From the NCBI GenBank assembly GCA_009602735.1, contig WELA01003305.1, positions 790,233 to 844,840 of the forward strand: 54,608 nt of DNA, written 5' to 3'. Position numbers and translations under genes: made by a program. The notes under the pieces are model-generated. The model was not told where the DNA came from, did not search any database, and saw only the letters and a list, made by a program, of their open reading frames with translations. Positions 2,075-54,608 of this stretch are shown in pieces (positions within the stretch are counted from its first letter, which is position 1; each line of letters starts with the position of its first letter). Source of the stretch: Mesotaenium endlicherianum. Lineage: Eukaryota.

Positions 2075-2163
<89 letters not shown>

Positions 2164-3340: not shown

Positions 3341-4150
3341 GGTCAATCAGCTGACTACTCCTTGCATGATGGTATGTAGCCTCTGAGGAGGAAGAGGAGC
3401 AAGATGAGGAGCGCAAGCAGCCAGCTCAATCTGGTGCTAGCTCTAGTAAACATGAGCAGGAGGCACGGTCTGAGGACGAGTTAGAGGAGCCCTTGGGAAG
3501 GCCCGGCAAGGTGAGAAACTTTTGTCGTCAGGTCGATCAGGCCACTATGTCAATAGGAATATTGGTTGTATTAGCTGGAGACGCAGAATAAGGCTGCTAA
3601 GGAGGATGAGGAATCAGCAAGGAGACCTTCCACATGGACGGAGATACTCAGTTTGACAGGGCAGCTAGAGATGTAGCCAAAGGGATAGTAGCAAGACCAT
3701 CTAACCATGGGAATGCGCCCACTGCCAATGTTCTTCAGCACCCTGAGGGCCCAATTTTTGTTTCTATTCATGAAAGGATAGTAGTGGAGAGGGTTGAGGT
3801 GCAATCTCCTGAAGGTCCTAGTGTGAGTGAGTCTGCTTTATTAAAGGCGAGGTGGCAAATATGCGTTTATGATTCTAGGTCTAGGTCTCTAGAGGATCCT
3901 TCTTGTGAACCCCTCCCCTAGGATGTGTAAACCATCCTCCAGTTGGCCTTGCTGAGGGTCTCTCCTTTTGCATTCCATAAAGGTCATGGGTTGAAGGTGG
4001 AGGTTATAGCTTACTTTCACTGGTGAACCCCACAGTTAGGCAACAATGTTGAAGCAAAAGGCGGAGGCTTGGAAAGAATGTTGTTAGTCCAGACCAATCT
4101 TCTATTGTCAAGGCGACAACAGTCTAAGTTGGAGGAATATTAATGAATGT
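3341..4150 (+). pseudogene. Decayed 3' end of a G-like LTR element: remnant of an ORF3 homolog, followed by hairpin, PPT and a degenerate LTR start
   Basis: GQSADYS..., SEEEEEQDEE and GNAPTANVLQHPEGPIFVSIHERIVVERVEVQSPEGPSVSESALLK...SRSRS are collinear with the C-terminus of ORF 46280-47980. TTGTCAAGGCGACAAC..TAAGTTGGAGGAA..TAATGAAT at ~4106-4148 matches the 3' ends of elements G and C. Confidence 0.75.
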
Positions 4151-7259: not shown

Positions 7260-7524
7260 CACTGTGATTGTAGCAGGCTTGCGGATAATACCACAAGACT
7301 TAGTGAATATCTAAAAGCAGTTTGCAATTGAAAAGAACTTTCTTCCAAATCCTTCTCAGTGAGGCCCAAAGCTTTACAACTCTCTTGTCCAAAAACATTG
7401 GCAGTGCCCCTGTATCCAACAGGATCTTTGGAGCGGCCCCGTTGTATGACTTCAAGATTTTGTCTTTGTTCTGCACTTTTTACAAAGTTGAAAATGGTAG
7501 GCACCGCAACACTGTTTGCTCCTT
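7260..7524 (-). pseudogene. Retroviral-type aspartic protease remnant of the DNMT-carrying element
   Basis: The minus strand reads KILLDTGALPMFLDKRVV (DTGA at 7405-7416), continuing after a frameshift as KALGLTEKDL...FQLQTA. Confidence 0.7.
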
Positions 7525-16472: not shown

Positions 16473-16801
16473 TACACTTAAAAATTTCCGTAGCTTCCTC
16501 CTGGAGAGGAGCACTTAGGCAGAAAACTATAAATAGGCATAACTTCTTTGTTTCTCATCAGTTTTCACTTCCGTAAGTTTCTACGCGTTTGCAATGACGA
16601 CCTTTCATCCTACTTTATTTGTGAGCAATTTCTTGCCACTCAAAATGTTGAGTAATTTTCCTAAGCTTTCTTAGTGATATGCCGCTGCACTCTTTAGTAT
16701 GATTGCAACTAGTTCCTTTCCTCGTGAGTTACTACGCTTCCACTAGGGCACTTTGCCCCTTTCACTTGGTATCGGAGCTGGGCTAGTTTGCATATTATAT
16801 T

Positions 16802-17834
16802 ATGGAGTCGCAGTCAGCCGCTGGAGGAGGCGAACATGTCGAGCATGTTGGGCGCGTGGAGCAGCAGACAGCACCAACAATGACCAGAGAGCAACAAGAG
16901 ATGCAGACGATGCTAAGGCAAATGGTGAATGCAATTGGAGGAGAAGTCTACGCCCAGTTTCAACAAAATATGCGCGCAGAGGTGGAGAGAATGGTGCGAC
17001 TTGTTGTTGGGAATGCCGCTTTGACGAGCTCGGCACCTGCACCTGTTGTACCACCAATTCATGTTAACCCAGTGGTGCAACCAGTTATTCCACCCGCATC
17101 GGGAGTGCGTGCGCCTGAGCCTGAAGTGTATATTGGAGAGCGTGGAGCGCCGCCTGTTCATCAATGGATTTCTTGGAGTGAAGAAGTTTATGGAGTATTC
17201 TGCGCTCACGCCTGACAGGCAAGTCGCGTTTGTAATTACTTTGCTGAAGAAGAGTGCTGGAGCTTGGTATGAAGGAGAAGAGCAGCAGTCTGGAGTTCCT
17301 GCTACTGTTGATCAGCTATTTGAAGGCTTGAAGAGGAAATTTCAACCTATTGCACCCGAGGCTACTGCTCGAGATCTATTGGTGCGCCTTCGTCAACGAG
17401 GAAGCGTTCAAGAATATGTATCGCGCTTCAACGAGCTAGTGCCTCAATGTCCATCCATGCACGAGTCAGAGATGATGGACAAGTTTAAGAGGGGACTCAA
17501 GCCAACTGTGGCCAAGGAAGTGGCGCTCAAGGACCCTACCAGTCTTGGAGAAATGATGGCATTGGCAACAAGGGTCGACGTTGTGGAGTATAGTCAGAGG
17601 CAGTGGGGCAGCCACAACTTTGGAGGATATGGACACTTTGGATCTCAAGCGCCAAGCACGAGTGGACAAGGTCCAATACCTATGGAATTGGGGCTTATTC
17701 AGAACCAGCACAGGCAGCAGAATTTCAAGCCGAGAGGACCCTGCTATAATTGCGGCAAGTTTGGACATCTGGCTCGAGACTGTCGTGTGAAGGCGAAGCA
17801 ACCTCAACAACAGGAAAAAGGAGGACGCCAGTAA
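16802..17834 (+). pseudogene. gag: Element B gag (frameshift near 17170)
   Basis: ORFs 16802-17215 and 17046-17834; PIPMELG motif and CYNCGKFGHLARDC knuckle. Confidence 0.9.
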
Positions 17835-20800: not shown

Positions 20801-21430
20801 TCTTGTTGGAGAAGGCCAAGGAGACTCAGGTTCCTACTACACAAGCGTTTATGGAGCAGATGGCCAAGACTTGGGATATGGCGAAGACGTGTATTTGGAA
20901 TGCACAAGAAGAGCAGGTCAAGCATGCTAATAAGCATTGGAGGGAAGTGACATTCCATGTGGGTGACAAAGTACTCTTGTCAACAGAGAACCTACCTTTC
21001 ACGGGCAAGAGGAAATTGCGGACACGGCTTACAGGTCCCTTTGTGGTGCTCAAGCAGGTTTAATCCAGTGACCTACAAGTTGGAACTTCCTTCAGGCTGG
21101 CGTATCCATGATGTGTTCCATGTCAGTTGTTTGCGGCCATACGTTGACCCGAACGAGGGACATCCAGGACGACTACCTACACCGCCACCACCGGTCGAGA
21201 TCGATGATGTATTGGAGTATGAAGTGGAGGCGATCGTCGGCGATCGACGAGTCAAGCGAGGTCAACGACTTGTTCAAGAGTATCTGGTCAAGTGGAAAGG
21301 CTACCATGCGGACGACAACACTTGGGAGCCAGAGGCCAACTTGACTCATTGTAAGAGTAAGTTGAGACGTTATGTAAAGAATGCGTCGAGGACGTCGCAC
21401 CTTGAGGAGGGGGATGATGTAAGGTCATAG
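17815..21430 (+). pseudogene. pol: Element B pol (PR-RT-RH-INT-chromodomain), multiple frameshifts and stops
   Basis: The same motifs as element A, spread over ORFs 17750, 18205, 18753, 19121, 20131, 20707 and 20957. Confidence 0.95.
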
Positions 21431-22161
21431 GTTTATAAAGTGCATTTTTGATTTTCATGTATGTATATTTTTCTTGTATAGAAGTCTACAGTGCATTTTT
21501 GTGGTCATTTTGATATAAAGTTCATCGAATTTGGTTAAGTATTGAGAGAGTTATGGATTTCCGAAGTTTAATTAGTTTTGAGGTCGATTGACGACTGTCC
21601 TTAATTCGCCTTGAGCGCGACCGTCAAATTGACCGACAGCGTCGAGCGATCTGGCCCGTTCGAGTGAACTCAAACCTTCACGTAAGTTTGGCTGACGCAG
21701 AGTGCCGACTAGGTCAATTTACCTAGAAGTTTCGATTTAGCCTAGCGCGCCTAAGATAGAATATTTCAGTAATGTCGATGCATGTATGTGGACGTCAATT
21801 CGGCCCGACACGTCAGATGAGACTGATCTGGCCTATTCACGAATATTCTGGAAGGGAAGATTTGACAAACACTTAGAAAATTCCGTAGCTTCCTCCTGGA
21901 AAGGAGCACTTAGGCAGAAAACTGTAAATAGGCATCACTTCTTTGTTTCTTATCAATTTTCACTTCTGTAAATTTCTACGGGTTTGTAATGACAAGACCT
22001 TTTATCCTACTTCATTTGTGAGAAGTTTCTTGCTACTCAAAATATTGAGTAATTTTCCTAAGCTTTCTTAGTGATATGCTGCTGCACTCTTTAGTATGAT
22101 TGCAACTAGTTCCTTTCCTCGTGAGTTACTACGCTTCCACTAGGGCACTCTGCCCCTTTCA

Positions 22162-26299: not shown

Positions 26300-29200
26300 T
26301 CCTTACACTTGACCGAGTGTACAGGTGGCATCCAAAAACAAATAGCCAACTGGACCTAAGGCAAGTAGTCAAACCCCCTCTAGTATCCACGTTGACTTTC
26401 CATACGTCAGTCAACACACCGTACAGACCCAAGTCTCAATATGCTCATCTTATCTGATTATCTCGCTAGCTATGACGAGCCACAATGCCACAGTAAGACA
26501 TGTCACGCACCAAGCATGGCAACACCAAGAGCTCGTTCAGCTCAAGCACTCAAAGTACTCATTGATCGCGGCTGCTCTCGGGCACTGAACCTTTAATAAG
26601 TCATGCGAACTAAAGAGAGTTAAAGGAAAGTCCTTGCGTTCATAAACTCAAGCCCTTAAACCCTTTAACCACATTAGGTCAAATAATCCAGCAGACTGAC
26701 TTAACCTAAGTCAGCAATCACATAAGATCCGCATCCAAAAACCTCTGCACACTTACTAGACTTATCTTAAGCTTAAACCCCAAGCTCCTACGATCCCATC
26801 AAGTATCACCAAAGCACCGTCTCACACATAGCATTCAAGCACAAGGCACATACCCTAAACCTTCCAGCCCACGTCAATGTGGCAAACGAGAGGAGCACAC
26901 AATGTTACAGCCATGGTTGGGAATAGAGGGTATCTGTAGGATGCCATTGTTGCTGTGGAAGCCTCTTCTCATAGAAGTTGCAGCATGCTGAAGCTTGTGG
27001 ACGACGTAGTGCACTTGGACCGTGGCGACGAAAACCTGTCGTAATCCATACTTGGAAACTTAAGTTAGTAAATCATGTGTGCACGCACTGTCTCAATTGC
27101 TCAACACATGCAGCCATACCCAAGCTCCCTCAACCGAACTGCCACACAAATAATGAGAGAGGTACGTCTCTTGCAAAGCAACAAGCTTAAACCCGAAGGG
27201 ATAGCACAACAGACCAACAAGTCCTCTAGCACCGCTGGAGTGCACACCCCTCTCTATACTAGCCGTGGATTGCATATGACAACACACAACGACTATGATC
27301 AAGTGAGGTAAATGAGTCATATCCAGCTTGCTATGATGCAACTCCCTTGAGGCTGCCCTTGATGCTTGCAGACACCTCTTCCATCAAGCCTCCACTTCAG
27401 GCTTCTCGTTGCGTGTAACTGTACACAAGAGGCTAGGAAAGTCAAGTTAGTATGCCGCATAGTACACTGAGCTAAGAGACACACTAGGTGAGCAAGTGGA
27501 AGGATCCTGGACAGGATGTGCAATGCTCTACATCATACACTTCCCAAGCTCCACCTAGACTCATCATACCACACAAGTAAGCCTCACACATTTACCTCAT
27601 GAGACAAAGAAGACAAGCACAGACATTAGAGAAAGGACTTAGCTCCGATACCACTGAAATGAATCTTGCTTATTCAAGATTAATATATTTCATTTAAATA
27701 TATAAGATCAGAGATAGGTGGAAGCGTGTGAAATCAGGGAGCGATCTTCGCCCTCATAATGAATTCCATTTACTCATCTACACCCCTTGACTCATTTACC
27801 GTAGTGTGCCATAGTTGCACACTGACACGAGGCACAAGTAAGAGGCGAGCTGGAGGACTTGAGCTTCTCCTTTAGAAACTCATGGCCTCTTGCCTACCAG
27901 GCATGCAAGCATGTATAGCACATGCACAACATCAGGGGACTGAATAGCGAAGGCGCTCTCATTCAGGTGACCATAATGTAGCTAAAACACATCCCACTGA
28001 CTTAGGTGCAAACCCTTGGAATATGTCCGCTGTGTGACCCCAAAATATCAGAGGGCATAACTCTGCCAATACTACTCCAAATTGAGCAAACTCAATGGAA
28101 ACGGATGTATCTTCACGAGATCTTTCCGGAATGTCCTAGTTCGCTCCATTTGAAGCGTAGACGAAGCAACCATGTCAATTTCCGTGAAGGTTGGTCATTA
28201 GAACGAACCCAAAAGTGCACAGCATACCGTAGAGCAGGTGTAAAATGGGCCCTGCTGTAATAGATTCACTATGCACACCTAAGTAAAGACAGAAGAGACC
28301 ATCGACATTATAGACGTTCTCGCAATGCATGGCTTGAATGATCTTGTTCAGTTCGATGCACAAACATTCTTCTTGCTAGCTTGGGGTTACAGTGCGAAAG
28401 TCTTACCAGGGATCTATGCACGCTGTTGTCATTGGCTTGCTAGGTGCTTGCTGCAATTACAATAGGTGCCATGTATGTGCCTTTAGAGAAGAACTCGGTT
28501 TTGAGCTATACTGAGTTTGCCCATTGTCATTGGTTGAGTCTATGTGATCCCAATGCTTGCCTCGCCCTCCCGGAAACTATGTAAGATGGAGTCATCAGAT
28601 CTTGACTAGACTGATGCAGCTAGGGTGTGGTGTTTACCACGCGTAGCTAAGCTCATGGAAGGCAACTTACACACTGGCTTGTTGTCTGTTTGACAGACTG
28701 AGACCAGCAAGCAGAGTGTGAAGCAATGGTGACATACAGGTCGAGAGAGGCCGAGGAGTTGGCATGCTGGACGCTGCCACGTGACGCTTCTCCACCTGTC
28801 CTCTGGGCAACTTCAGGCAGTAAGGCCTAAAGGAGGGAGTATCCTGAAACATCAAAACTATGATACAGTTGGTTGTTTCTCTTCCCTTTTTACTTGGATT
28901 GTTGACTCTCACTATTTGGTGGTTGTCATTTTGGCGTATGTCTTGCTAGGAATGACTGGTATGAGTCATTGTATGCATGCGTAGGTAGAGTCAGCTAACT
29001 GAGCTACTCTTTGGTACTGGAGGAACTTACTAATGGGGCCGATTGTCTTTATCTCATAGCAAGCTATCTACACTTCCAAATGGAGGGGTGTAATACGCTG
29101 GTGAAATTGGGTTATTCATGGATAGAGCTTTATGGTGAGAGGGACTGAATGGCAGTACACTCTACCCTATGCCACTTTGGGCATTGCTCTAATCCTGAAA

Positions 29201-30896
29201 AATGGACTTTTTTTTTTTTGGGGGGGGGGGGACTTTCTTTCTTGCTGACTTGATGTTTGCACTTTGTGTCCTCCCTCGGTATTCCTTTGTTGATTTTCCT
29301 CCACCCACTCGTACCTCCGCAATCCTCTGTGACTGTCACTCTGTGTGGTTCCTATGATGCGGAGTCGTAGGCCCTTTTTGGTGTGCTTATGTGGTTTGAG
29401 CTGTCGGGTCGACAACTATTTTAGTTGGGGAGAGGGAGATGGGATGTGTATTAGGAGTGTTCAGTAAGCTGTGCTTACCTGCATACTCAGCAGCAAGTGT
29501 ATGTACTAACTGAGTCATACACTGCCACATCCTATGTAGGTACTGCATTAATATCAGGAGCATCAGTGACTGACTGGTGCAAACTGTGAGTTGCAGTACA
29601 CTGTTGGAGCAAGTGTACGTACTAACTGAGTAAGTACATTGCCATAAGTTGGGATTGGGTAGCAATGATGCATGACACATCAGGAAACTGCTTGAGGTGA
29701 CCAGCATATTGCTCAAAACCATATGTTTCTTTGAACTTAGAGTGTTATGAAAATGTGGTTAAAATTTAAAATTTTCATTGGCTCATTAACCTGATGTTAC
29801 TCTTCTTGTGAGGGCATTCAATGCCATCAAACCAGTTGGTCTTTCTCTTCCTTCAGTACGCTGAATTTTGAGCAGGTACCTAAGTCACAAGAAATTGCTT
29901 GTGAGGAGCTTTCAAGGTGTGAGCACCGCAGGAGTTGAAGACCAAGAGAAGGAGAAAAGGCTTAGTTCAATATGCTGAGCTTTAGTAACATTCTTTCATT
30001 GTTTGACCTCAAAAGGAGGCTGTTCGATTTGGGTGTGGTTTGCATGGTGTGAGGTGCTCTATTATGTCTTTCAACCGGAAGAACTATTGTGAGTAGGGGT
30101 AAGTCCATGCATGTCTTCAGTTAATGATTGTGAAGTCAGATGGTTGCTTGCATGACAATTTGTTGTGATTGATTTTTACTTGCACTGGGTAGGTGAATAT
30201 ATCACGCTCATGTTTTGTTTGCTTGCTTTGCTTCACCTAGTTGACTGATGTGTATTATTAAATAAAAGTATCATATGATGAGTGTTGTCGAGGCGACAAC
30301 GATTTAAGTTGGGGAGACTGTAATGAATCAGTTCATTATTTATTTAAGTAATTGCATATATAAATATAATACTAAATAAGTATTATGTCTATATACTCAC
30401 ATGTGCGAGTTCATCTAAATGAATGTATGTCGATGTAATGCGAGTTTACTTACCTTGTCAAAAAGGTCAGCAGGATGACTTTTGTACCGTAGTGTAGTTT
30501 GCTGACTTTGTTGAAAAGGTCAGCAGGACGACTTTAGGTTTGCACCTAAGTCAGTGGGATGTGTTTTAGCTACATTATGGTCACCTGAATGAGAGCGCCT
30601 TCGCTATTCAGTCCCCTGATGTTGTGCATGTGCTATACATGCTTGCATGCCTGGTAGGCAAGAGGCCATGAGTTTCTAAAGGAGAAGCTCAAGTCCTCCA
30701 GCTCGCCTCTTACTTGTGCCTCGTGTCAGTGTGCAACTATGGCACACTACGGTAAATGAGTCAAGGGGTGTAGATGAGTAAATGGAAGTCATTATGAGGG
30801 CGAAGATCGCTCCCTGATTTCACACGCTTCCACCTATCTCTGATCTTATATATTTAAATGAAATATATTAATCTTGAATAAGCAAGATTCATTTCA
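26300..30896. mobile_element. Family C non-coding LTR element (LARD-like) nested in element D: inverted 5' LTR+PBS (27642-~28222, minus) and PPT+3' LTR (30319-30896, plus)
   Basis: PBS at 27642-27653 abuts TGAAATGAATC; TAAGTTGGGGAGAC precedes TGTAATGAATCAG at 30319; the LTR ends GATTCATTTCA at 30896; no retroviral ORFs in the interior. The left boundary is approximate. Confidence 0.75.
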
Positions 30897-33386
30897 CATA
30901 GAGAAAACGGCGTTCAGGATAAGATATGGACATTTTGAGTTCATGGTCCTGCCATTTGGACTCACCAACGCGCCAGCAACTTTCAAGACTATGATGAACA
31001 CCATATTTCAACCCATGTTGGACAGATTTGTGGTGGTATTTATTGATGACATCCTTATCTACAGCAAGACCCTTGAAGAGCATGCGAGACACTTCAAAGA
31101 AGTCCTCGAAGTATTGAAGCAAAATAAGCAATTTGCAAAAGAGTCAAAGTGCGAGTTTGCCAAACAAGAAGTGGAGTTTCTAGGTCTCCACGTGACTGCT
31201 GATGGCATCAAGATGGACCCCAAGAAGACCACGGTGGTGGAGGAATGGCCAACCCCCACGACCAAGAAAGAAATCCAGTCATTCTTGGGATTTGCCAATT
31301 GGTACAGGAGATTCATCCAGAGCTTCTCGCACATTGCAGCCCCTCTCACGGATCTACTGAAGAAAGACAAGCCATATGTTTAGACCAAGAAAGAGGAGGA
31401 AGCATTCCAACAACTGAAGCAAAGATTGACGACATCCCCGGTGCTCACACTCCCAAGTCCAAACCCAGATAGGCCCTTCCACGTCATCACCGATGCATCT
31501 TCTTACGCAATAGGAGCAATCCTGCTTCAAGACCAAGACAAGGGACTGCAGCCCATTGCCTACAAGTCAAGGAAGCTAAATCCAGCCGAGCAAAATTATA
31601 CAACCACAGAGCGAGAGGCGTTGGCAATTGTACATGCCTTGAAGGTTTGGCGCTGCTACGTTGAAGGACGCAAGGTGCCGGTCACTACAGACCACGAGGC
31701 GTTGAAGCACCTCCAGACGCAGTCGTATTTCTCAAGAAGACAAGCAAGATGGAGCGAATACTTGCAACAGTACAACATCACGATTCAGTACCAGCCCGGC
31801 AAGACAAATCCGGCTGACCCCCTCTCAAGACTGCAATTAAATGCAGTGATGATATCCTTGAAGACGGAATTAGAAGCTCGATTTTCAGCCGCCTACAAAA
31901 GAGACCCTTACTACAAGAACGGAGAAGCGGCCTTGGACTCATACAAGAAGCAAGAAGGCAATTATTGGGTGAGGCAAGACACGAGCCAGAGATGTGTTCC
32001 TGATGACTTAGACCTCCGGCTCTAGCTTCTACGAGAAGCATACGACAACCCTCTTGGAGGACACTTTGGTATCCTAAAGACCACGGGCGTTCTAGCCGGG
32101 ACTTATTGTTGGCCAGGCATGTCTAAGCAAGTCAAGGAGTACTGCAAGAGCTGTGCCACATGCCAAAGAATCAAGCCATCATCGCAAAAGGCGGGTGGAC
32201 TCCTCCAACCACTACCAATCCCCGAAAGACAATGGACGGACATCTCAATGGACCTTATTGTGGACCTGCCCGTGACACCTCGAGGCCATAATGCAATACT
32301 CACGGTGGTTGACAGACTTACTCAGATGGCTCATTTTATTCCCACGACGACTAAGGCTACAGCACCACAACTTGCAAGACTCACTTTGACAACATCTTCC
32401 GACTCCATGGACTACCATCAAGAATTGTGTTGGATAGACATCCAAGATTCACAAGCCATTTTTGGAAAAATCTCTTCAAGAACTTGGGTACATCGTTGGA
32501 TATGTCCACTGCCTACCACCCGCAATCAGATGGGCAAACTGAGCATATGATTGGTACCCTAAAGACCTCTCTAAAGGCCTACATGTCTACTTTGGAGCAA
32601 GATTGGGACTTGTACTTGACCCCTCTGGAGTTTGCCTACAACAACACGACGCAGGCCTCTACCCAAGAGTCCCCATTCTTCCTCAACTATGGCTTCCATC
32701 GAACCACGCCGCTGAGCTTCACGGCTGGCCGTGATAAATTACCTGCAGGACCAGATTTTAGATAGACATTAGAAGCAGCCCTTATAGCAGCGAAGAAAGC
32801 TCTACAACAAGCGCAAGATGCTCAAGCAAGAGTCGCAAACTGGTCCAGAAGAGAAATTACGTACAGAGTGGGTGACAACGTGTTGCTATCATCCAAGAAT
32901 ATTTCTCTAAACAACAGGCCTGCCGGCAGCAAGTTCTCCCCCAAATATTTGGGACCCTTCAAGATTATCCAGCAAGTCAACCTCGTTGCTTTCAAGCTAG
33001 AACTTCCCCAGACTATGCACATCGACCCCGTATTCCACGCTTCCCTCTTCAAGCCATATGTGCAATCCGACAATAAGTTCCCAAAACGAGTGACAACCCC
33101 ACCAGCCCCAACAATAGTGGATGATCATTTGGAGTACAAAGTGGAAGACATTGTGGCTATGAGAAATTTCAGGAGACAGCAGCAATACTTGATCAAGAGG
33201 AAAGGATATCCAGATTCTCAGAATAGTTGGGTGGCGGCGCACTACCTTGACAAAGTTCAGAGAAAGCTGAAACGCTTCTATGCCGCCAACTCCCATCTTG
33301 GACCAGCCCCAAGTCTCTCTACAAGAAGCCCGAAGACTTTAGGGAGGCAGCCTACCACCATCAAGAAGCAGCAGAAGACCTCTTGA
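30897..33386 (+). pseudogene. pol: Element D pol remainder (RT from IEKTAFR, RNase H, integrase, chromodomain)
   Basis: FIDDILI; ITDASSYAIGA; ISMDLIVDLP; YHPQSDGQTE; EYKVEDIV...YLIKRKGY. The RT N-terminus is missing. Confidence 0.93.
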
Positions 33387-34156: not shown

Positions 34157-34284
34157 GAGACGTCGCTTTTTCTGTCGGGGAGGTGATGTAGTGATTTTAG
34201 TTATAATATATTAGTTTGCATATATTTTAATACTTTTGAATATATTTGGAGTAGTATTGTGTGGAGTCAAGTGTGAATAGATAC

Positions 34285-35006
34285 TGTAATGAATCAGTAT
34301 ATTGGTTGATATAATATTCATTTAAATATAACAGTTAAATTAGTTCAGTCTGCTCCACTCTAGTTTAATAATCGATCTGCTGGACTTTATATTTAATATC
34401 AGTTTAATGACTTAGCCAAAAGCAGCAGGCTGAAGTCAACTTAAGTCAGCTTGCTGACACATTCTTTGACAGCCAGCTGACTTCCGTACTCGGTAGCAGC
34501 GAACTGCCTTGATATACATCTAAGTGTGGTATGCTAGATGAATGGCCAGATGACATCCCTACGATAGATGGCGATTCGGGATGATGGGAGATGGCGGTGG
34601 ATTTGGTTAACCGAGGTCCTACCAACGTGGTTAACTCCCGGGTAGGCGGTGCCATCGCACTGGCCGTTGAACAGTAAACTCATTCCATGTACATATGCTA
34701 GGCATTGCTCTCGAGTTCGGCATTCGGAAACGAGGCCAACTCTCTTTTACAGCTTACTGAGAGAGATCTGAATCCAAGGCGAGAAGCCATTGATACGCAC
34801 TGTCATCTAACTTTGCTTAAGTATGAGTTTACTGATTTGCATTATTGATGCTAGTTTACTCGCATTTGACTTACGAGTATTATTCACTGCTAGTGTGTTG
34901 TCCTTTGCCGTTTAACCAGTTAACGGAAACTACCATAAAGATTACTTACTGATATGAAGATCTTTATTAATTGTTAATCGCCTATTTGGTAAGTCGATTC
35001 ATTTCA
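34285..35006 (+). mobile_element. Solo LTR of family G inserted in the 3' LTR of element D, TSD GATAC
   Basis: TGTAATGAATCAG...GATTCATTTCA flanked by GATAC at 34280-34284 and 35007-35011; the empty site is visible in the 5' LTR of D (~24165). Confidence 0.96.
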
Positions 35007-35422
35007 GATACTCTAGTGACTTGGTTCATGTCCTTTGAACCTTCTAAGGCATTTTCAAAGTTAGAGGAAGGACCTAGAAGAACTCCATGTGGCAAAAGTC
35101 AAATGTGCTGTTTTTAGGTCAAAAGGACATGTGTACATTATTCTAGAAAGAGGTGGCAAGTTTTGGGATGTGTTGGGTGCCAACACATCAACATGCACTT
35201 TCCTAGGAATTACTTATGTAGCAACTCTATAAACAAGAGCTAGAACATAGAATAACATTCCAGAATCACTCTTGTACGTGCCAAAATTCCAGAAATATAT
35301 TAACTTTTAAGAAGTCATCTCTCTTTCAAGAAGCTACCACTTGTGTTCAAAGATCCTTGTCTTGAATAGATAGAGTATTCTATTTTACTAAATACTTTAT
35401 CTATCTGTTTCACTACATGCAC

Positions 35423-44739: not shown

Positions 44740-45440
44740 TGTAAGGTTATGAAAGTGTAGTTTGTTTCTTTCTAGTATTTTATATGCATAGAGTGTGATT
44801 GTAGAAGAACTTTGACCTTTATTTCAAGTCATTTGGACAAGTATTGAGATGATTATGAATTTTGGAAGTTTTTAGTGAGTTTTTAATGTCACAGATTCTA
44901 TTTAGTGACGAGGACAGGTCCAGTGACGAAAATTTCGGTTGGAGTCCAGGAAGTAGGACATTGAAACATGAGGGTTCCAGAAAGTACGTACAATTACGTA
45001 GAGTGCCAAAGTGATCGTGGAATTTCTAGAAACTCCGTGAGGAGTTAGTGGATTGTGTAGTAGAATATTCTAGAGTGTGATTGTGTGCGTGTGAGTGTGC
45101 TAGCTTGTCCAACTAGGCAAGGTCAAGTACATGGAAGGAGCCATAGGAGAAGGTTCTGGAGGTACCTTGCTAGAGAGGACACTTAGAGTTAAAGGATAAA
45201 TGGGAAGCACAAGGAAGTAGAGGGAGCTTATTCTAGTCTTACCTTCGTATCTTGTACACGACTTTTCTTAATAAAGTGAGTTCTTTTCCACTCCTCGCTC
45301 ATGTAACTCTCTCTCTCTTGCAAGGGTGGCACGCCACCAGGCCACTCCACCTTGTGTATGCAACTAGGAAAGGTCCTCGTGCACGCTTCCACTCGCGGGT
45401 GAGGGTGCGTGAGTGTGTGTGGGCGCACTCCCCGCACCCT
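44740..45440 (+). mobile_element. LTR H (solo or 5' LTR) distantly related to the A/B LTRs, ending at an N and element G
   Basis: Starts TGTAAGGTTATG (A/B LTR starts TGTAAGGTCATAG), shares AAGTATTGAGA...TTATG, and ends GGGCGCACTCCCCGCACCCT, similar to the A/B end GGGCACTCTGCCCCTTTCA. Confidence 0.65.
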
Positions 45441-46279
45441 NTGAAATAAATCGACTTACCAAATAGGCGATTAACAATTAATAAAGATCTTTATATCAGC
45501 AAGTAATCTTTATGGTATTTTTCGTTAACTGTTTAAACGGCAAAGGACAATACACNACACAAGCAGTGAATAATACTCGTCAGTCAAATGAGAGTAAACT
45601 AGCATCAATAATGCAAATTAGTAAACTCATACATAAGCAAGGTTAGAAGACAGTGCGTATCAATGGCTTCTCGCCTTGGATTCAGATCTCTCTCAGTAAG
45701 CTGTACAGGAGAGTTGGCCTCGTTTCCGAATGCCGAACTCGAGAGCAATGCCTAGCATATGTACATGGAATGAGTTTACTGTTCAACGGTCAGTGCGATG
45801 GCACCGCCTACCCGGGAGTTAACCACGTTGGTAGGACCTCGGTTAACCAAATCCACCGCCATCTCCCATCATCCCGAATAGCCATCTATCATAGGGATGT
45901 CATCAGGCCATTCATCTAGCATATCGTACTTAGGTGTACGTCAAGGCAGTTCGCTGCTACCGAGTACGGAACTCAGCTGGCTGTCAAAGAATGGATCAGC
46001 AAGCTGACTTATAAGGACTTCAGCCTGCTGCTTCCGGCTGAGTCATTAAACTGATAATTATGTAAAGTCCAGCAGACTGACTATTAACTAAAGTTCAGCA
46101 GGCTGAACTTGATGAACTATTATATTTAAATGAATACTATATCCACTAATATACTGATTCATTACAGTCCCTCCAACTTAACTTGTTGTGGCCTCAACAA
46201 CATTAAACTGCAAAAGCCTTAAATAAAGGAACTGACCCTGACCAGCCTCCCCTACTGACTGTCTTTTCAGCCTGTCACC

Positions 46280-47965
46280 TTAAGGGGTTGTTCCTGGGAC
46301 TTCAGGATCAGGAGACGGAGATCTGGACCTAGATCTGGACAACCCTCTAGGTCTGTCAGCAGGCCTTCTAAAGAACCCTGTTTGCTCTAAAGTTGGACCT
46401 CGAGGAGAATGAAGGATGGTAGCCTGTTCTTCAACCACTTGGGTGTTGATCCCCACATAGACAGGCATTCCAGTAGGATGCTGAAATACATTGGCTAGAG
46501 GTACATGCCCCTGAGCGGAGGGGGAGGCTGGCATACCTCTGGCCCACCCGCGTGTCCCTCTTCTGGCACCCCTGTCCTCTGGGGATTTCTGCCTGTGTCT
46601 GCTGCCCAGTACAGTCAGATCAGCTTCTTCCCCTGCTTGGGCAGGTGGGCTGGGGGAGCGAGCGCGGGGTCCAGTTGTCGCCATAACGGGGATCACATTC
46701 CACACACCTGATCGTGGTTCTTTAGGAAGTGCCACTGCCTGTCCCTGGGTATCCTGAGTACCTGCTGCTGATGCTTCTCCTCTGCCTTGTTCTTCTTCCT
46801 CATCCTCCTCATCCTCCTCCTCGGAGAGAGTAGGGGTCTCGTCCACTAAGTCGTCCTGCTCCCTAGTAGACATGGAGTAGTCTACCGACCTCCCTTTCTT
46901 AGGGCGCGCTGGAGGTTGCTTGGCCTTCAGCCTACTGATATCTATCCGGCCTGCATTCTTTGCCCATTTGACAAAGGCATGCTTTCCCTTAGAGAAGTAG
47001 TCTCTTCCCCTCCTCCTATGTTCCTTGGTCTCTGCATTCATATTGCTCAGGCATCCATTCAGCCTGGGGTCCCAAGGGGCAATGTGAGGTGGTAGGATGA
47101 GATAGCCGTCTAGGCCATAGTGGAAGTCATCCGGTTGGGCTCGGTCACACTCCTGCTTCTTATTTGTGACGGTCATCCACCTCCAGTCTGTTGGCTGCTG
47201 GTAGTACTGGGGTCCGTGCTCAGCCTTCCTCAGTTTACACGGGAACCAGTGGGGAGAGAACATCTGCTGTCCTGCTTCCCTGGCCAAGTACTCCCAGCTC
47301 CTTCTCTCAACTTCATTGTAAGCTGGCAGGAGTGTGAGGTAGAATACCGTATCCTTAAAGCTATCGGGCCGCATGCTCACCATCCGGATGAGTCTCTGAT
47401 CTCCCACTATTCCCGGTATGGGGACCGGCTTGTCCTCTGAATCATCTGCGAGATACCGGGCCTGCTCTGCTGTATAGCCCACCATCTTAGCATAATCTTC
47501 GTAAAGGACCACGCCGGTGTGTGTCTCGATGTACCTGTCCAGTGCTGTAGCTCCTTCCTTCTGTAGCAGTGTTGTCTGTTCGAGCCTGTTGATCTCCTGG
47601 GCTGCCAGCAATGCTTCCTTCAGGTTATCGAAGTTTTGGCCACCCACTACAGTATACCTGTAAGTGGCCAAGCTCTTCTGTCTGTCCGCTTCAATCTTTT
47701 TCCTTTTCTCCTCCTCTGCCGCTGCCGCTTCTTCTTGTTGTTTCTTCTGTCTCTCCTCCTCCGCTTTCCTGAGGTTTTCCGCTTCCTGATCCTTCTTCCT
47801 CTGTGCCTCTTCTGCCGCCTCTTGTTGTTTGCGGACCCTTTCTTGTTCTCTCCTGGTGAGGGACGTCGCCGCCAGCTCCTTCTGGTATTGCTCCATTGTC
47901 CTCCTGGTTTCTTCTGCCTTGCGCTTTCTGTCCTCCTTTTGTGTGGTGGGCGCCATACTGTACAT
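46280..47965 (-). CDS. Element G ORF3, ~560-aa protein of unknown function (coiled-coil N-terminus, globular core, acidic tract, RS-rich tail)
   Basis: Uninterrupted ORF in sense with gag-pol, between pol and the 3' LTR; ATGs at 47965 and 47956; diverged homolog at 3341-3921. Confidence 0.85.
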   Translation of the reverse strand: MYSMAPTTQKEDRKRKAEETRRTMEQYQKELAATSLTRREQERVRKQQEAAEEAQRKKDQEAENLRKAEEERQKKQQEEAAAAEEEKRKKIEADRQKSLATYRYTVVGGQNFDNLKEALLAAQEINRLEQTTLLQKEGATALDRYIETHTGVVLYEDYAKMVGYTAEQARYLADDSEDKPVPIPGIVGDQRLIRMVSMRPDSFKDTVFYLTLLPAYNEVERRSWEYLAREAGQQMFSPHWFPCKLRKAEHGPQYYQQPTDWRWMTVTNKKQECDRAQPDDFHYGLDGYLILPPHIAPWDPRLNGCLSNMNAETKEHRRRGRDYFSKGKHAFVKWAKNAGRIDISRLKAKQPPARPKKGRSVDYSMSTREQDDLVDETPTLSEEEDEEDEEEEQGRGEASAAGTQDTQGQAVALPKEPRSGVWNVIPVMATTGPRARSPSPPAQAGEEADLTVLGSRHRQKSPEDRGARRGTRGWARGMPASPSAQGHVPLANVFQHPTGMPVYVGINTQVVEEQATILHSPRGPTLEQTGFFRRPADRPRGLSRSRSRSPSPDPEVPGTTP

Positions 47966-48248
47966 GTAACCAGGGCACAAGTTAGTAGGGTATGGACCTT
48001 TGTCATAGGGATTGCAGGAAGTATGTTAGTATTAGTATAGTGGCTTCGCTGCTGTTTACCTTACAGGATGATTGCTAAAAGTTGACGTAGTTGCGATGCG
48101 CTAAACATAAACGTATGATTGTGTTGTAGGGTGAGTTAAGTGATGTAGTGTTGTGCGAGGCCCTTTTTCCTTCAGCTCAAGGTGCTTTATGTGGGCCAGG
48201 CTGTAGGCTGTCCCCTCTGTCACTATGCTGACACTTAGGGTTCACGTA

Positions 48249-48303
48249 ACTGTCCCTTTATCGCTCTCGCTCACTACTGTCCCTTTATCGCTCTCGCTCA
48301 CTA
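48249..48303. repeat. 27-bp tandem duplication in the pol-ORF3 spacer
   Basis: ACTGTCCCTTTATCGCTCTCGCTCACT twice. Confidence 0.9.
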
Positions 48304-48380
48304 ACTGTCATATATTTTCCCCTCCAACTTAAATGGAGACAGGACCGCCTGTCACCTTCTTGTGTCAACTGAAATGACAA

Positions 48381-51300
48381 TTATGAAGGGACTCCAGCGG
48401 CCCGAAGGTGGAACCGTTTCAACGCCCCTTTGGCATTGGTCAAGTGGTCCTTAAACTCCCAAGTGTCCCCAGAGGCATCGTAACCCTTCCATCGAATGAG
48501 GTATTTCATGACATATTTAGACGATCGACGGACCGAGCGAGCGTCTAAAATCTCATCGACCTCATATTCCTCAGGGTCGCCGTCCCGGACAGCGGGGACC
48601 GGTCCCGGTTGGACAGGGAACCGACCTGTGAACAGTGTATCACCTCTGATGTATGGTTCCAGGAAGGAGACATTGAAGTACGGGTGACCCTTGTATTCAG
48701 CTGACATGTTCAGTTTGTAAGCATTCTGACCGATACGACGTACCATCGAATATGGACCAACCCAGACAGGGCCAAGCTTTTTCTTGACCACACCAGGGAG
48801 GTACAGGTGTTGAGAATGCAGTTTGACTAAATCCCCCTTGGAAAATGTCAGTTCCCGACGGTGTTGATTAGCGTATTTTTGTTGGTTTTCTTGGGCCGTG
48901 TGCAAGTTTCGTTGGACTTCTGACAGGGTGTCAGCAAACTCCTGAGTTAACTGGAGGGAGACCGGGTTGTCAATCCCTTCAGGGTGAGTTAAAGATTCCC
49001 CTAGCACATCTAGAGGAGACTTAGGGACTCTACCCAGGCTGAGTTCAAAAGGAGTTTTGCCCGTTGACGCGTGCACCGCACTGTTGACCGCAAACTGAAT
49101 TTGAGGCAACAGGTCATCCCAATTATCTTGTTTTTGGTTAATATATGCTCTCAGCACCTCCTGCAGAACTCGGTTAGTTCTTTCAGTCTGCCCATCAGTC
49201 TGAGGGTGGTTTGCTGTGCTGAGCAGCTGTTTGACTCCCATTAACCCCATTAAAGCTCTCCAGAACTTAGAGGTGAATTTTGAGTCTCTGTCTGAGATGA
49301 TATTAGAAGGGAGCCCATGTTGGCATACTACATGGTTGTAAAACTGTCTCGCTGTTTCGAGTGCAGTCACTTTGACAGTTGTGGGGATAAAAATGACCAT
49401 TTTTGTCAGTTTATCCACGACTACCAGTATTGAATCATGCCCGTTGGCAGTTCTTGGTAGTGAGACCACCCAGTCCATGGATATAGTTTCCCAGCGTCCC
49501 GCTGGGATGGGTAGCGGTTGCAAGAGACCTCCGGGTGGTGTGTGCCGAGACTTATTTCTCTGACACTGGTCACAGGACTTGACATATTTCAAGACCTCCC
49601 GGGGTAACCCCTCCCAATGATAATGTTTTGCCAGTTTGCCAACAGTTTTGGCCTGCCCCAAATGTCCACCCAGGAGACTGTCATGAGCTTGACTCAGTAA
49701 GAGAGACCTTATTTCCAAGTTATTAGGAATGACCAGCTTCAGCCTGCCTGAAGTGGTTTCAGTCACCCAGACCCCTCCCTTGAGCTTATACCCGAGTGCA
49801 GTAGCACGACACATACCAGTAGTGGGGCTGGGCTCAAATGTTGGGTCAGAAAGGTAGGCTTTCCTAAGTTGTTCAAGGAAGGACTTTTTCACCTTTAGTG
49901 AAGTGAGTGCACACAGGACTTTATCTACAGCATGCTGACTAAAGTTCCTTTCTTGCAAGTCAGGTCTTCTAGAGAGTGCATCAGCAGGATTCAACTTCCC
50001 TGGTTTGTAGTCGATCTGGACTTGGAACTGCTCCAGCATCTGGCTCCAGCGGTTCTCCCTCCTCGACAGCTTGGACTTCTTCTGAAAGTGGGTCAGAGCT
50101 AGATGATCTGTAATCACCTTAAAAGCTTTACCATGTAAGTATGCTCTCCACTGTTTGAGTACATGAATGATAGCTAGCAGCTCTTTATCATGCACTGAGT
50201 AATTAATCTCCGCTGGATTAAATTTCATAGACTCATACAACACAGGATGCCACTCCTGCCGTACCTTACCATCCTTTGTGGTTTTGTCAGCAGGCTGCAA
50301 CAAAATAGCACCCATGGCAAAATCAGAGGCATCAGTAACCACCTGCACCGGTTTGCTGGGGTCATACACGGCTAGCACTGGGGCAGAACAAAGGGCATCT
50401 TTAAGGGTCTGGAAGGCAGCCTGCTGCTCTTCCCCCCACACATACCCGATGTCTTTCTTAGTAAGGTCAGTCAGTTTACTGGCCTTTGTGGAATAATTCT
50501 CAATAAATCTCCTATAGTAGTTAGCCAACCCGAGGAAGGATCTAACTTCAGAGACAGACTGTGGTACTGGCCAGTCCCTTATGGTCTGGACTTTCTTAGG
50601 ATCCACACTGATGCCCTCTTTACTGACAACGTGGCCTAAGAATTCAATACTTTCCTTAAAGAAATCACACTTGCTCATTTTAGCATACAAGTGATTTTTC
50701 CGCAGAGTGTCCAGCACTTTCTTTAAGTGTTCAGTGTGCTGAGCTTCATCTTTAGAGAAAATTAAAATATCATCCAGGAAAACTTGCACAAACTTATCCA
50801 AATAAGGTCTGAAAATGTCATTCATAGCACCCATAAAGGTAGCAGGAGCATTAGTCAGTCCAAATGGCATCACGTTGAACTCATAGTGTCCATAACGTGT
50901 GCGGAAAGCAGTCTTGTGTTCATCCCCCTCAGCAATTCTGATTTGATGATAACCACTCTTGAGATCTATCTTACTGAACACCTTAGCGCCAGACAGGGTA
51001 TCAAGCAAGTCCTCGATTCTGGGTAAAGCATACTTGTTCTTTACTGTAATTCTGTTCAGGGCTCTGTAATCCACACACATCCGCATACTGCCATCCTTTT
51101 TCTTAACAAATAGGATAGGTGCGCCGTACGGTGATTTACTGGGAGAAATGTAACCATTTTCCTCCAGCTCTGCAATCTGTGTTTTCAACTCCTCGCTCTC
51201 CAAATAAGACAAGCCATAAGTGCGTTGCCAGGGTGGCTGGCTACCAGGTAATAGATCAATCCTATGATCTACTTCCCTTTTAGGGGGTAGTCCTGGAGGC

Positions 51301-52187
51301 ATGTTAAACACATCAGTGTACTGAGCAACAATTTTTGCAGCAGTAGGGTGCTCCGGAGGGCTTACCTTTTTCTCAACCACTTCTTCAGGTTGAGGAGGTA
51401 CCTCTCTTAGCAGCAGACAGAACATTCTGTCTTCCTTCTGGTTCCAGCTTTTGACGAACTCCATTGCATTCAGCAACTTGCATCCTTCTGGAAGCCTCTT
51501 CTTTTCCTTCATTTGCCATCCACACAGGACAAGAGGAAGAGCACTGGTGGGTGCCAAGTCAGTCTGCCCATCACTGGCTCCTCTCACTTTAACTGTACCT
51601 CTGCTCCAACACACTTCAGCTTGATGTCTATTAAGCCAGGACCTGCCTAGCACGAGATCATAAAAGCCAGTGTTGAGTACCTCAAATGTAAGCGTTTCAG
51701 TTAGAACTGCAATGCCAGAACCTAACTGGACCTCAATAGGCTTGGTTATAACTCCTCCCGGGATACTTGAGGCATCTCCAAGGAATATTTTTCTATTCCC
51801 TTGGGTGACAGTAGGCAGCCTTAGCCGCTTAACTAAGTCCTTGTGAATAAAAGTATGTGACGCCCCTCCGTCAACAAATGCCCTCACCTTCCTACCTGCA
51901 ATCATGCAATGCAGTAGGATAGGGGGGACTGTCTTTTCCTGACTTTCGCATTGTTCTCCTGACGTAGCAAAGAAATGTTGGACATCAGGTGGAACAAGAG
52001 CATCCAGAGTGTGCACTCTCTGGACGTCTATATTACTGATGGTCTCCTTTATCTGTTTGTCAGGCATGCATAGTGAATCCAGTTCAGCAGGACCCATAAT
52101 ACCTGCTACGAGGGCAGCTAGTGACGACTCACTATCTCTAGCATCCTCACAGTCAGTAGACTGGATTACTGACTGTTGCTGTCTTTT
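48381..52187 (-). CDS. pol: Element G Pol (PR-RT-RH-INT-chromodomain), probably expressed by -1 frameshift at T-TTA-AAA (52190-52184)
   Basis: [55 protein letters not shown]...YLIRWKGY. The -1 frame is open from the heptamer through the Met at 52097. Confidence 0.96.
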
Positions 52188-53644
52188 AAAGGCTGGTCTT
52201 TTCTCTCGACCTTAGGCAGGTGCTTGACCGGACACTGTTCTCTGTAGTGGCCTTTCTGCTGACAATGGTAGCAAGTAGATTTTGCTGAGGCTGGTCTCGG
52301 CTTAGTCCTACCACCACCCCTTCCATAGCCACCTCGAGAGGGACCACCTCTACCTCTAGACTGAATAGCATTGTACTCATACTCATATTCATCACCCTGA
52401 TTATCCTCAGCCTGGTCTCCTTCAACTGCATTGTAGGAACCGTGGGGCTTTTTGACAATCTTAGACACCAAAGCGTTACTCTGGCGCTTGTGATTGAACT
52501 GCTGCTGATCCCAGGCGTCAGCATCCTGGATCAAGTCAGCCAGTTTCTCATACTTTTTCTCAGCAAAATGACCAGAGACCTCGGATTTCAAGCCATACCT
52601 GAAGTATGCTATCCTATACCGTTCTGGCAAATCAGGCTGCTTCATCATGTTCTCTTGGAACTTTTGAGCAAACTCAGCAACTGAAGTGGTCTGCTTCAGT
52701 GTCAGGGAGATCATCGCATAGATAGCTTTCTCCTGCTGGTTGATGACATCAAACTTCTCATGCAACTTCTCGACAAACTCTACCCACGTAGGGTCACCGA
52801 GTTGCCGAGCCTTACGCTCTTCCTTCCAGTAAAGCCACCAGTCTGCGGCACTGCCTTTCAGTAGCGCACCGGTGTGCCTGACCTTCTCGTAATCTTGCAG
52901 TTCTGGGTAGTTCTCCAGCCACTGCTCAACATCCGCGAGAAACTTGATCAGGTAATATTTTCTGTTTCCCTCAGGATCATAGTCCTGGGGAGGTTTCGGC
53001 TTGGACTTACTAGGCCCTCGGCCACCACCACTAGTGGTGTGAGACCCCAGCTGGTCTCTGTCCCGCAGTAGGGACATTGTTATTCTTTTGTCCTCCTGCT
53101 GGGACTGATACATGGTCGCCATTTGCGACTGCATCTGAACGAACAATGCTCCCAATTCTACACTCTGGGGTGGTTGATTAGCAAATGCAGCAGCAGCATT
53201 GGCATTTACTCGCTGAGTAGTGTCCTCAACAATCCCTCTTGTTCCTGCAGTAGCAATTCCAACCGCATTCAGCCGGTCACGTATTTGACCTAGGGGTACA
53301 TTGAGTTGTACGGCAGGAGGTGGGTTCAGAACATTGGCCCTTGATGCCATAAGTTCCTCAACATTGCGCTCGTCAGCTGGCTGTCCTTCCCTCCTTTCTG
53401 TATCTTCAGCGGCCTTTGCCACTTGTTCAGCTTCTAGCCTGGCTATCTCCTCCTCAACTTGCTGAGCTGCGACTGAGGCAATAGCAGCTGCCTCATCTGC
53501 AGCCTCCCTAGCTGCAGTATCTGCTACTGCATCCGAATAGGTACGGTTTCCCGCTACATGGCTTTCCGCCTGGTTTTTGACATTCTCGTTATCCTGGTTC
53601 TCCATGTCTCGGGAGTTGCTAGTTTGAGACCTTGTCCTTACCAT
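52166..53644 (-). CDS. gag: Element G Gag (492 aa) with RGG tract and CCHC knuckle
   Basis: MVRTRS start; [34 protein letters not shown]. Confidence 0.95.
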
Positions 53645-54399
53645 ACAAAGAAGACTGTGATAACTGCTCCGATACCACTGAAATGAATCGACTTACCAAA
53701 TAGGCGATTAACAATTAATAAAGATCTTTATATCAGCAAGTAATCTTTATGGTATTTTCCGTTAACTGTTTTAACGGCAAGGGACAACACACTAGCAGTG
53801 AATAATACTCGTGAGTCAAATGAGAGTAAACTAGCATCAATAATGCAAATTAGTAAACTCATACATAAGCAAGGTTAGAAGACAGTGCGTATCAATGGCT
53901 TCTCGCCTTGGATTCAGATCTCTCTCCGTAAGCTGTACAGGAGAGTTGGCCTCGTTTCGAATGCCAAACTCGAGAGCATTGCCTAGCATATGTACATGGA
54001 ATGAGTTCACTGTTCAACGGTCAGTGCGATGGCACCGCCTACCCGGGAGTTAACCACGTTGGTAGGACCTCGGTTAACCAAATCCACCGCCATCTCCCAT
54101 CATCCCGAATAGCCATCTATCATAGGGATGTCATCTGGCCATTCATCTAGCATATCGTACTTAGGTGTACGTCAAGGCAGTTCGCTGCTACCGAGTACGG
54201 AACTCAGCTGGCTGTCAAAGAATGGGTCAGCAAGCTGACTTATAAGGACTTCAGCCTGCTGCTTCCGGCTGAGTCATTAAACTGATAATTATGTAAAGTC
54301 CAGCAGACTGACTATTAACTAAAGTTCAGCAGGCTGAACTTGATGAACTATTATATTTAAATGAATACTATATCCACTAATATACTGATTCATTACAGC

Positions 54400-54608
54400 T
54401 GAAATGAATCGCCTTACCAAATAGGCGATTAACAATTAATAAAGATCTTTATACCAGCAAGTAATCTTTATGGTATTTCCGTTAACTCGTTTAAACGGCA
54501 AAGGACAATACACTAGCAGGGAATACTACTCGTCAGTCAAATGAGAGTAAACTAGCATCAATAATGCAAATCAGTAAACTCATACATAAGCAAGGTTAGA
54601 AGACAGTG
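54400..54608 (-). mobile_element. Additional family G LTR in direct tandem with the 5' LTR of element G, running off the window
   Basis: ...CATTACA-GC-TGAAATGAATCG... The sequence after 54400 repeats the sequence after 53679. Confidence 0.95.

Follow-up and report, generated by a model that had tools for sequence, protein, structure and literature searches.

We analysed a 54,608-nt window of the Mesotaenium endlicherianum genome (contig WELA01003305.1, positions 790,233 to 844,840; coordinates below are those of the window), in which a nest of long terminal repeat (LTR) retrotransposons lies downstream of the final exons (419-3053) of a host gene for an Xaa-Pro dipeptidase. One of them, here called element G, runs on the minus strand from 54397 to 45442; it is an intact Ty3/gypsy element with a chromodomain and has an additional open reading frame (ORF) between pol and the polypurine tract (PPT). 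This frame, ORF3 (46280..47956, minus strand), codes for 558 aa plus a stop. Multi-copy, intact and far above chance length, it is a real gene, and very probably a selected accessory gene of the element.

Structure of element G and of the ORF3 protein

All parts of G lie on the minus strand. The 5′ LTR (53679..54397, 719 nt, TG...CA) and the 3′ LTR (45442..46166, 725 nt) show 12 mismatches over 719 aligned columns. One base past the 5′ LTR is the primer binding site (PBS) TGGTATCGGAGC (53666..53677), which we take to be of the initiator-Met type, and one base ahead of the 3′ LTR is the PPT AAGTTGGAGGGA (46168..46179). The gag gene (52166..53644, ATG at 53644) codes for a Ty3 capsid and a CCHC knuckle. 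The pol gene (48381..52211) includes protease, reverse transcriptase, RNase H, integrase, SH3 and chromodomain, with profile matches to RVT_1, RT_RNaseH, rve, SH3_Tf2-1 and Chromo (E=5.9e-9); the chromodomain bears aromatic residues (EYEV...WKGY). By the order protease, reverse transcriptase, RNase H, integrase and C-terminal chromodomain, and by its LTRs, PBS and PPT, G is a chromovirus. Both genes are free of interruption, pol overlapping gag in the -1 frame, and a spacer of 424 bp separates the end of pol from the ATG of ORF3. Reading frames and profile matches bear out an initial annotation of this DNA, which had described uninterrupted gag and pol followed by an extra sense ORF. In the gag/pol overlap, at approximately 52186-52192, the gag frame reads CCT TTA AAA, a possible -1 slippery heptamer.

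The ends of G were inspected for a target-site duplication: a further LTR of the family directly adjoins the 5′ end, and an N stands at 45441. At 54397-54400 this LTR and the 5′ LTR of G are joined end to end via two bases (minus strand TTCA-G-C-TGTA), which equal the base between LTR and PBS (G) and that between PPT and LTR (C), so that this is an apparent joint of two unintegrated cDNA ends. It looks like a 2-LTR circle or concatemer that would have been integrated later. At its other end G sits at the extreme end of a plus-strand LTR of a different family (45300-45441). RNA reads of that other family are plentiful (depth up to 171) and continue into a Met-type PBS.

The stop-free frame of ORF3 extends over 581 codons (48025-46283, minus strand), 558 of them from the ATG at 47956. 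The longest stop-free run over 500 dinucleotide shuffles was 252 codons (mean 108), and a chance ORF was therefore rejected. The first 100 residues form a charged helical stalk (28 K/R and 24 D/E). An aromatic core follows at about 101-340, with 21 F/W/Y within 176-340, and after it come a basic patch (341-365), an acidic run (366-400), a low-complexity linker, the motif ANVFQHP.G.P..V.I (about 488-503) and a C-terminal SR/SP tail, SRSRSRSPSP. Basic patches are found in KEDRKRK and KAKQPPARPKKGR. The motifs quoted in the initial annotation are all present, and its E/K/R coiled coil, aromatic core, basic patch and acidic run agree with the composition and, for the coiled coil, with helices in the AlphaFold model. 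Its SR-repeat tail also exists, but is short, with three dipeptides. No transmembrane helix was detected (maximum 19-residue hydropathy 0.73), which agrees with the earlier view that the protein is not env-like; an env-like ORF3 was rejected on this ground. A duplicate of gag was rejected as well (tblastn E=0.13 for the similarity).

The fold prediction that had been proposed for the core was carried out with AlphaFold from a single sequence. Only residues 1-100 were modelled with confidence (helices 4-30 and 35-102), the confidence score pLDDT being 42.0 for the whole of ORF3 and 33.6 for the core. No fold was thus obtained for the core, and Foldseek with the core model gave nothing at E<=0.001, a search made meaningless by the model confidence.

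Sequence searches for homologs of ORF3 were likewise blank. Pfam gave Borrelia_P83 (coiled coil, E=0.009, below the cut-off) and DUF6462 (E=0.21), with no match to the extra-ORF domains Athila ORF-1, Transposase_28, PMD and DUF390, to DUF1985/DUF287 (the domains of the VANC proteins) or to an RNA-binding family. Nothing was found in NCBIfam, in a set of 5.8 billion proteins (lengths 319-1017 only), among 1.84 billion protein representatives of any length, in the ESM Atlas (searched twice), among PDB sequences to E=10, or in viral and metagenome contigs searched by protein and by the pattern of PPT and LTR start. Rfam had no match in element G. The protein collection includes the host's proteins, as a 48-residue exon of the host gene is 98% identical to a jgi/Mesen1 protein and the next best match 75%. 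Neither a described retrotransposon ORF family nor a host gene, either of which would have told against the earlier idea of an accessory protein, was therefore matched in Pfam or in the protein collections.

Copies of ORF3 and a distant relative

How do copies of ORF3 vary within the family? Sampled words of the element were sought in sequencing runs, and at least half of them occurred in 20 of the 24 listed runs (7 studies, 5 coded organism labels that are not readable as species); one of these 20 may be the source of the window. None of them is recorded as an RNA run, which speaks neither for nor against expression. Genomic contigs of four runs (X1, X6, X8 and X10) were aligned to G. In X1, 7765 contigs lay on 46200-48460, with 2636 at >=99% identity, 2540 at 95-99%, 1762 at 90-95% and 827 below, and the best-supported 40 of 153 difference rows were used as variants. 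All four contig sets covered ORF3, and its depth, which is not to be equated with copy number, was similar in magnitude to that of gag and pol (40-90 against 41-157 in X8).

Among the best-supported rows 18 variants fall within ORF3, and 13 of them are synonymous, compared with an expected fraction of 0.28-0.33 (binomial p 1e-4 to 8e-4). The excess is found in polymorphic variants (7/9, p=0.004) and in near-fixed ones (6/9). No stop occurs among the 18, and crude omega is 0.15-0.19, not the value near 1 that the initial annotation had regarded as contrary to selection. In pol, by comparison, synonymous changes make up 16 of the 31 variants listed, which come mostly from the pol 3′ end and from diverged copies. 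These figures refer to rows picked by support and to sites that are not independent lineages, and rows in the acidic repeat may be dropped. No indel reaching 3% lies inside ORF3, the three listed indels being all outside it. The core stretch 47001-47581 is without a listed variant (p=5e-4 under even spread), a gap possibly due to constraint, to homogenisation or to the listing itself. Family members lacking ORF3, recognisable by a direct joint of pol to PPT and LTR, were not seen, and no LTR letters occurred among the loose ends listed (26 and 363 more). The synonymous excess, the lack of a common indel or of a transmembrane segment, and the blank comparison with known families and host genes support the earlier proposal of a selected accessory protein.

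The sole relative of ORF3 found is a decayed, stop-containing fragment of a distant family (3341..3921, plus strand), homologous to the C-terminal part. Positions 3382-3912 match ORF3 at 28% over 179 aa with stops present (tblastn E=2e-11), and the Smith-Waterman score of 131 compares with 27+-5 and a maximum of 58 in 2000 shuffles. The fragment keeps the motif around ANV.QHP.G.P..V.I, SP.GP and the SR/SP tail, and it is followed by a stretch matching the pre-PPT, PPT and LTR start of G (4105..4149, plus strand; score 48, maximum 35 in 20 shuffles). The fragment stands alone, as a 3′ piece about 280 bp past the stop of the host gene; upstream of it neither gag nor pol nor an ORF3 core was found. 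The initial annotation had seen here a diverged copy of the C-terminal half, before the PPT of a different element. The homology is real and does precede a PPT and LTR start, but the good alignment is confined to the last ~90 residues, and the assignment to a different element depends on the match at 4105-4149.

Four further gypsy elements of the window have no ORF3-like ORF in the stretch from pol to the 3′ LTR, and of six other inter-ORF regions in the window none showed homology to ORF3 above z=3. One gypsy family is present at 7525-22161 in two copies of opposite orientation (about 91% alike, 5.6 kb), with no extra ORF. Decayed minus-strand frames with Cys/His-rich pieces (e.g. 5066-5641 and 6035-6947) at 4150-7500 match neither the pol of G nor ORF3. 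A solo LTR of the G family (34283-35007, plus strand, 92% alike) lies inside the LTR of another element. At 26360-30897 a G-related insertion is located within another element; its inverted LTR pieces are 99.7% alike (27655-28014 and 30537-30896), its PBS, PPT and LTR start are the same as those of G, and no pol core or ORF3 is detectable. It carries four TACTAAC heptamers, all that the window has outside G, and possibly represents non-autonomous relatives of G with introns.

Signals upstream of ORF3 and the proposed mechanism

The spacer between pol and ORF3 contains several signals, all on the minus strand. A 12-base 3′-end motif, AAGGTGACAGGC, occurs after pol (48358-48347) and again after ORF3 (46281-46270), and a second, internal PPT-like tract, AAGTTGGAGGGG, follows pol at 48330-48319. 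Ten GACA/TGTC motifs, six of them as sense GACAG, make up an array at 48180..48380 that is partly a short tandem duplication. It is the densest 200-bp stretch of the window, and ten motifs were reached in 0 of 2000 shuffles. A TATA-like box, CATAAA, lies at 48191. Related subfamilies diverge directly past the internal PPT and still show CTGTCAC repeats, as seen in loose ends from X6 and X10.

Duplicated 3′-end signals would mark a capture, and one may ask whether ORF3 is a captured fragment of a host or foreign gene that is now neutral. Besides the presence of AAGGTGACAGGC and a PPT both after pol and after ORF3, the lack of RNA described below and the existence of rearranged copies are in line with this origin. 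We consider it very improbable, given the synonymous excess among segregating variants, the failure to find a source gene in a collection that includes the host's proteins, and the 28%-identical relative in the same position in another family.

The spacer also has candidate splice signals. A 102-nt intron is predicted at 47958..48059, with the donor AAG/GTAAAC (48060/48059) and the acceptor AG at 47959-47958. TACTAAC, a branch-point sequence, occurs at 48031-48025 and at 47987-47981, the second site 23 nt before the acceptor AG. These are the only two in G, and both of them, out of six in the window, lie within 75 nt upstream of the ORF3 ATG, where 0.002 would be expected per 75 nt. Variants at 47957 and 47961 turn the acceptor into TGCAG/G, the same as the last acceptor of the host gene, in about 94-95% of the X1 depth and in the single contigs of X6 and X10. 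The initial annotation had named an acceptor TACAG immediately before the ATG; the actual order is TACAG-T-ATG, with one base between, and the candidate itself is strengthened by the branch point and by the better acceptor of most copies, but no transcript using it was seen. Two further candidate donors lie far upstream: a strong TTG/GTAAGT in U5, near the 3′ end of the 5′ LTR (53697/53696), and ATG/GTAAGG at the gag start (53642), which would place the gag ATG out of frame just ahead of ORF3. In the in-frame stretch upstream of the ORF3 ATG two of three listed variants are non-synonymous, which fits 47956 as the start. An upstream exon with a signal-peptide-like frame (48108, MFSASQLRQLLAIIL), joined in frame to ORF3 via a CT/GTAAGG donor at 48065, was judged unlikely because all three host donors seen have G at -1.

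What could the protein do? The reading that we favour, tentatively and without holding it to be probable, is that ORF3 is a nuclear regulator acting on the element's own sequence, most likely on the motif array. It is suggested by composition (basic patches, acidic run and helical stalk), by the adjacent array and by analogy with VANC and with Tas of foamy viruses. Translation of ORF3 would probably be from a spliced subgenomic RNA, made with the acceptor at 47958 and one of three donors, namely that of U5 (53697), that of the gag start (53642) or the spacer donor (48060). The protein would be imported into the nucleus via the basic patches KEDRKRK and KAKQPPARPKKGR, and would oligomerise through the stalk. 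Its aromatic core may bind nucleic acid, the likeliest target being the GACAG array a little upstream of ORF3, and the acidic run may serve activation or anti-silencing and so keep the element transcribed. The model would be VANC, with an array in its own non-coding DNA, or Tas, a transactivator behind an internal promoter, ORF3 being a member of neither family. Taken in its full form, as a new-fold, sequence-specific DNA-binding anti-silencing protein or transactivator on the GACAG array, expressed from spliced RNA as in a complex retrovirus and forming a VANC-like or Tas-like system of self-activation that arose independently in an LTR retrotransposon of land plants' algal sister group, the proposal is unlikely.

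A number of observations weigh against this view of ORF3. The variant test makes use of the best 40 of 153 rows. Dead copies exist, since eight of 15 listed joints, in single X1 contigs of depth 73-164, fall on ORF3, and gaps occur in some of the diverged contigs. The intactness of the single copy G is weak proof, as about 14 private changes are expected and the chance of their leaving no stop is 57%. A common 158-bp deletion (48126-48283), which accounts for about half of the depth in X6 and X8 and for the main contig in X10, removes five of the ten motifs together with the CATAAA box. That the candidate intron is spared by this deletion speaks for the acceptor as the constant part and makes a strict internal-promoter model less convincing. 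With 4 occurrences in 726 bp the motif shows no enrichment in the LTR, unlike the expectation for a Tas-like LTR activator; it was chosen after being seen, part of the array is one tandem duplication, and the array could be a host factor site. No fold or homolog backs any biochemical role (core pLDDT 33.6, libraries blank).

Transcripts, which the initial annotation had suggested as a check for a spliced or subgenomic ORF3 RNA, point in the same direction. In three polyA RNA runs of the same species label (6-12% of each read, growth stage unrecorded) element G received 255, 921 and 287 reads, mostly from copies 90-99% alike. All six bins over 46215-48044 had 0 depth in all three runs, run X22 still had no reads over ORF3 at 80% likeness, and no spliced joint into ORF3 was seen. 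The zero counts argue against constitutive expression of ORF3. Assuming the usual stranded library type, there are few sense reads, and they give out before pol ends; full-length RNA was likewise not seen, and the G family looks silent in these samples. Two further observations concern pol. At 48252-49569 all three runs have reads that come from diverged copies and cover the 3′ end of pol; they are apparently antisense and stop near the internal PPT. Three reads of one run skip 159 bases at 50134-50294, with plus-strand GT..AG ends, representing either an antisense splice or a deleted copy.

The silence would be explained by expression in a narrow stage such as conjugation or zygote, with the array acting as a host transcription-factor enhancer of KNOX/BELL or ARF type and the function of ORF3 unrelated to the element's own DNA. 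TGTCNN is the ARF core. TGAC is a KNOX-BELL submotif, and YGAC is part of the Chlamydomonas zygotic response element (PMC4889651). We nevertheless regard a host enhancer as doubtful, since the growth stage of the runs is unrecorded, the array is partly deleted in common copies and a core of 4-5 bases fits many factors.

The same selection evidence would equally suit a protein acting on RNA, Rev/Rex-like or SR-like, which balances spliced and full-length RNA or shields the element from small-RNA silencing. Arg-rich patches and an SR/SP tail retained in the distant copy are consistent with such a role, an element that splices out gag-pol would need this balance, and modulation of RNA silencing was proposed for the 5′ extra ORFs of Tekay (PMC11728184). 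Still, the tail has only three dipeptides, no RNA-binding family matches ORF3, Rfam has no match in the element, and the GACAG array is left unexplained, which makes action on RNA rather unlikely.

Alternatively, the long charged helix and the basic patches might belong to a structural or targeting cofactor, working through the coiled coil in the particle or pre-integration complex and assisting nuclear entry or the steering of integration into other elements. Nuclear entry has been discussed for 3′ extra ORFs (PMC7264820), and in the window G and its family's solo LTR are both found within other LTRs. Against this, the four other gypsy elements without an ORF3-like ORF indicate that such a protein is dispensable for the basic cycle, the integrase already has a chromodomain, and ORF3 has no similarity to gag (tblastn E=0.13). 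A cofactor of this kind is thus hardly likely, and action as a nuclear regulator on the element's own sequence is retained as the working reading.

Position of G and ORF3 among known elements

The best full-length matches of the G pol are 55% identical, and the named ones, from Haematococcus and Closterium, 47-49%. A tree was built with FastTree from G and 46 of 97 full-length matches (the 24 named and the closest 22 of 73 unnamed, 51 being omitted), with no clade-labelled references. G paired there with two unnamed sequences (0.94), in a region that also contains Haematococcus and Closterium and is poorly resolved; deep support was weak. G fell outside an Oryza/Tanacetum/Gossypium group (support 1.0), which we infer to be Tekay, and it has neither the seed-plant host nor the chromodomain without aromatic cage that characterise Tekay. 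Chlamyvir elements have a single stop between gag and pol in 80% of cases and a Met PBS in 41%, while Tcn1 elements, from moss or club-moss hosts, are self-priming in 83% and have overlapping gag and pol in 60% (PMC6317226). With Chlamyvir, G has in common the algal host and the Met PBS, but its gag and pol overlap in -1 frames instead of being separated by a stop. With Tcn1 it shares overlapping gag and pol and differs in its Met-type PBS and algal host. A non-seed host and a chromodomain with aromatic residues are common to all three, and neither of these clades is listed with extra ORFs.

In REXdb extra ORFs were recorded in 3372 Ty3/gypsy elements, forming 314 groups (PMC6317226). Sense 3′ extra ORFs are given there for 18% of Tekay, in a table whose Athila row looks column-shifted, so that its figures need care, and its available part lists none for Chlamyvir (44 elements), Tcn1, Galadriel, Reina and CRM. 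A figure legend on fungal elements also names an additional ORF (PMC2864245). The earlier statement that such ORFs are not a standard chromovirus feature is therefore correct only in part. Our literature search, made without most subscription journals, found no extra ORF described in a chromovirus of zygnematophytes or other algae.

ORF3 has at least 250 codons, is in sense orientation, is separate from the polyprotein and lies 3′ of pol, as do members of the eORF-3'F class (PMC6317226). Like ORF3, the eORF-3'F or aORF-3S of Athila, Bagy2, SIRE and 18% of Tekay are present in most copies and have no assigned function (PMC6317226, PMC7264820). Sense 3′ extra ORFs are mostly without a database domain, 21.4% matching CDD (PMC6317226, PMC7264820). 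The 3′ ORF of Bagy2 is spliced, and gene23 of Grande is nuclear and has its own promoter (PMC7264820). ORF3 is distinguished from known 3′ extra ORFs by the lack of a transmembrane segment and of Athila ORF-1, Transposase_28, PMD or DUF390 domains, by its algal chromovirus and by the second PPT-like tract with the array. It belongs to the known class of sense 3′ extra ORFs; the protein family itself is an orphan.

Extra ORFs borne by Tekay chromoviruses (the 5′ aORF of sunflower Tekay 13-2, RIRE3 and Retrosat-2; PMC11728184) resemble ORF3 in being carried by a chromovirus and in their proteins, predicted to be nuclear, with helices, a basic signal and long disorder, and conserved across copies (PMC11728184). 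In contrast to ORF3 they are situated 5′ of gag and in seed plants, and no sequence similarity was found between them. The anti-silencing protein VANC, encoded by VANDAL DNA transposons, attaches to dense arrays of motifs, all in one direction, within the non-coding DNA of the transposon that carries it (PMC5735166). The likeness to G consists in an extra protein encoded by the element and a dense same-direction array that varies by tandem duplication or deletion, but VANDAL elements are Mutator-type DNA transposons, their proteins contain DUF1985/DUF287, and array binding was shown for VANC and is only predicted for ORF3 (PMC5735166). The foamy virus cassette of internal promoter, central PPT and tas/bet (PMC6669568) is similar in layout to the second PPT, TATA-like box, short candidate intron and accessory ORF before the 3′ LTR of G. 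It differs in that G has no env, no sequence similarity and no enrichment of the motif in its LTR, and that the TATA-like box is deleted in common copies. Pol IV/V-like subunits are reported in zygnematophytes (PMC11194755), which makes pressure of the kind exerted by RNA-directed DNA methylation plausible.

Catalogues of plant LTR retrotransposons contain about 4000 extra ORFs, whose role has yet to be established (PMC6317226, PMC7264820, PMC11728184). What makes ORF3 notable here is its host, an algal chromovirus, together with the surrounding signals for splicing, the second PPT and the motif array. It brings testable parts to this question: a defined acceptor, the three donors proposed for it, an array that is its candidate target, and natural variants that have either the whole array or half of it. 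Should ORF3 not bind the array, it would simply add another unrelated member to a well-known class of extra ORFs. If it does, sequence-specific anti-silencing would extend from VANDAL DNA transposons to retrotransposons and to a lineage neighbouring the land plants.

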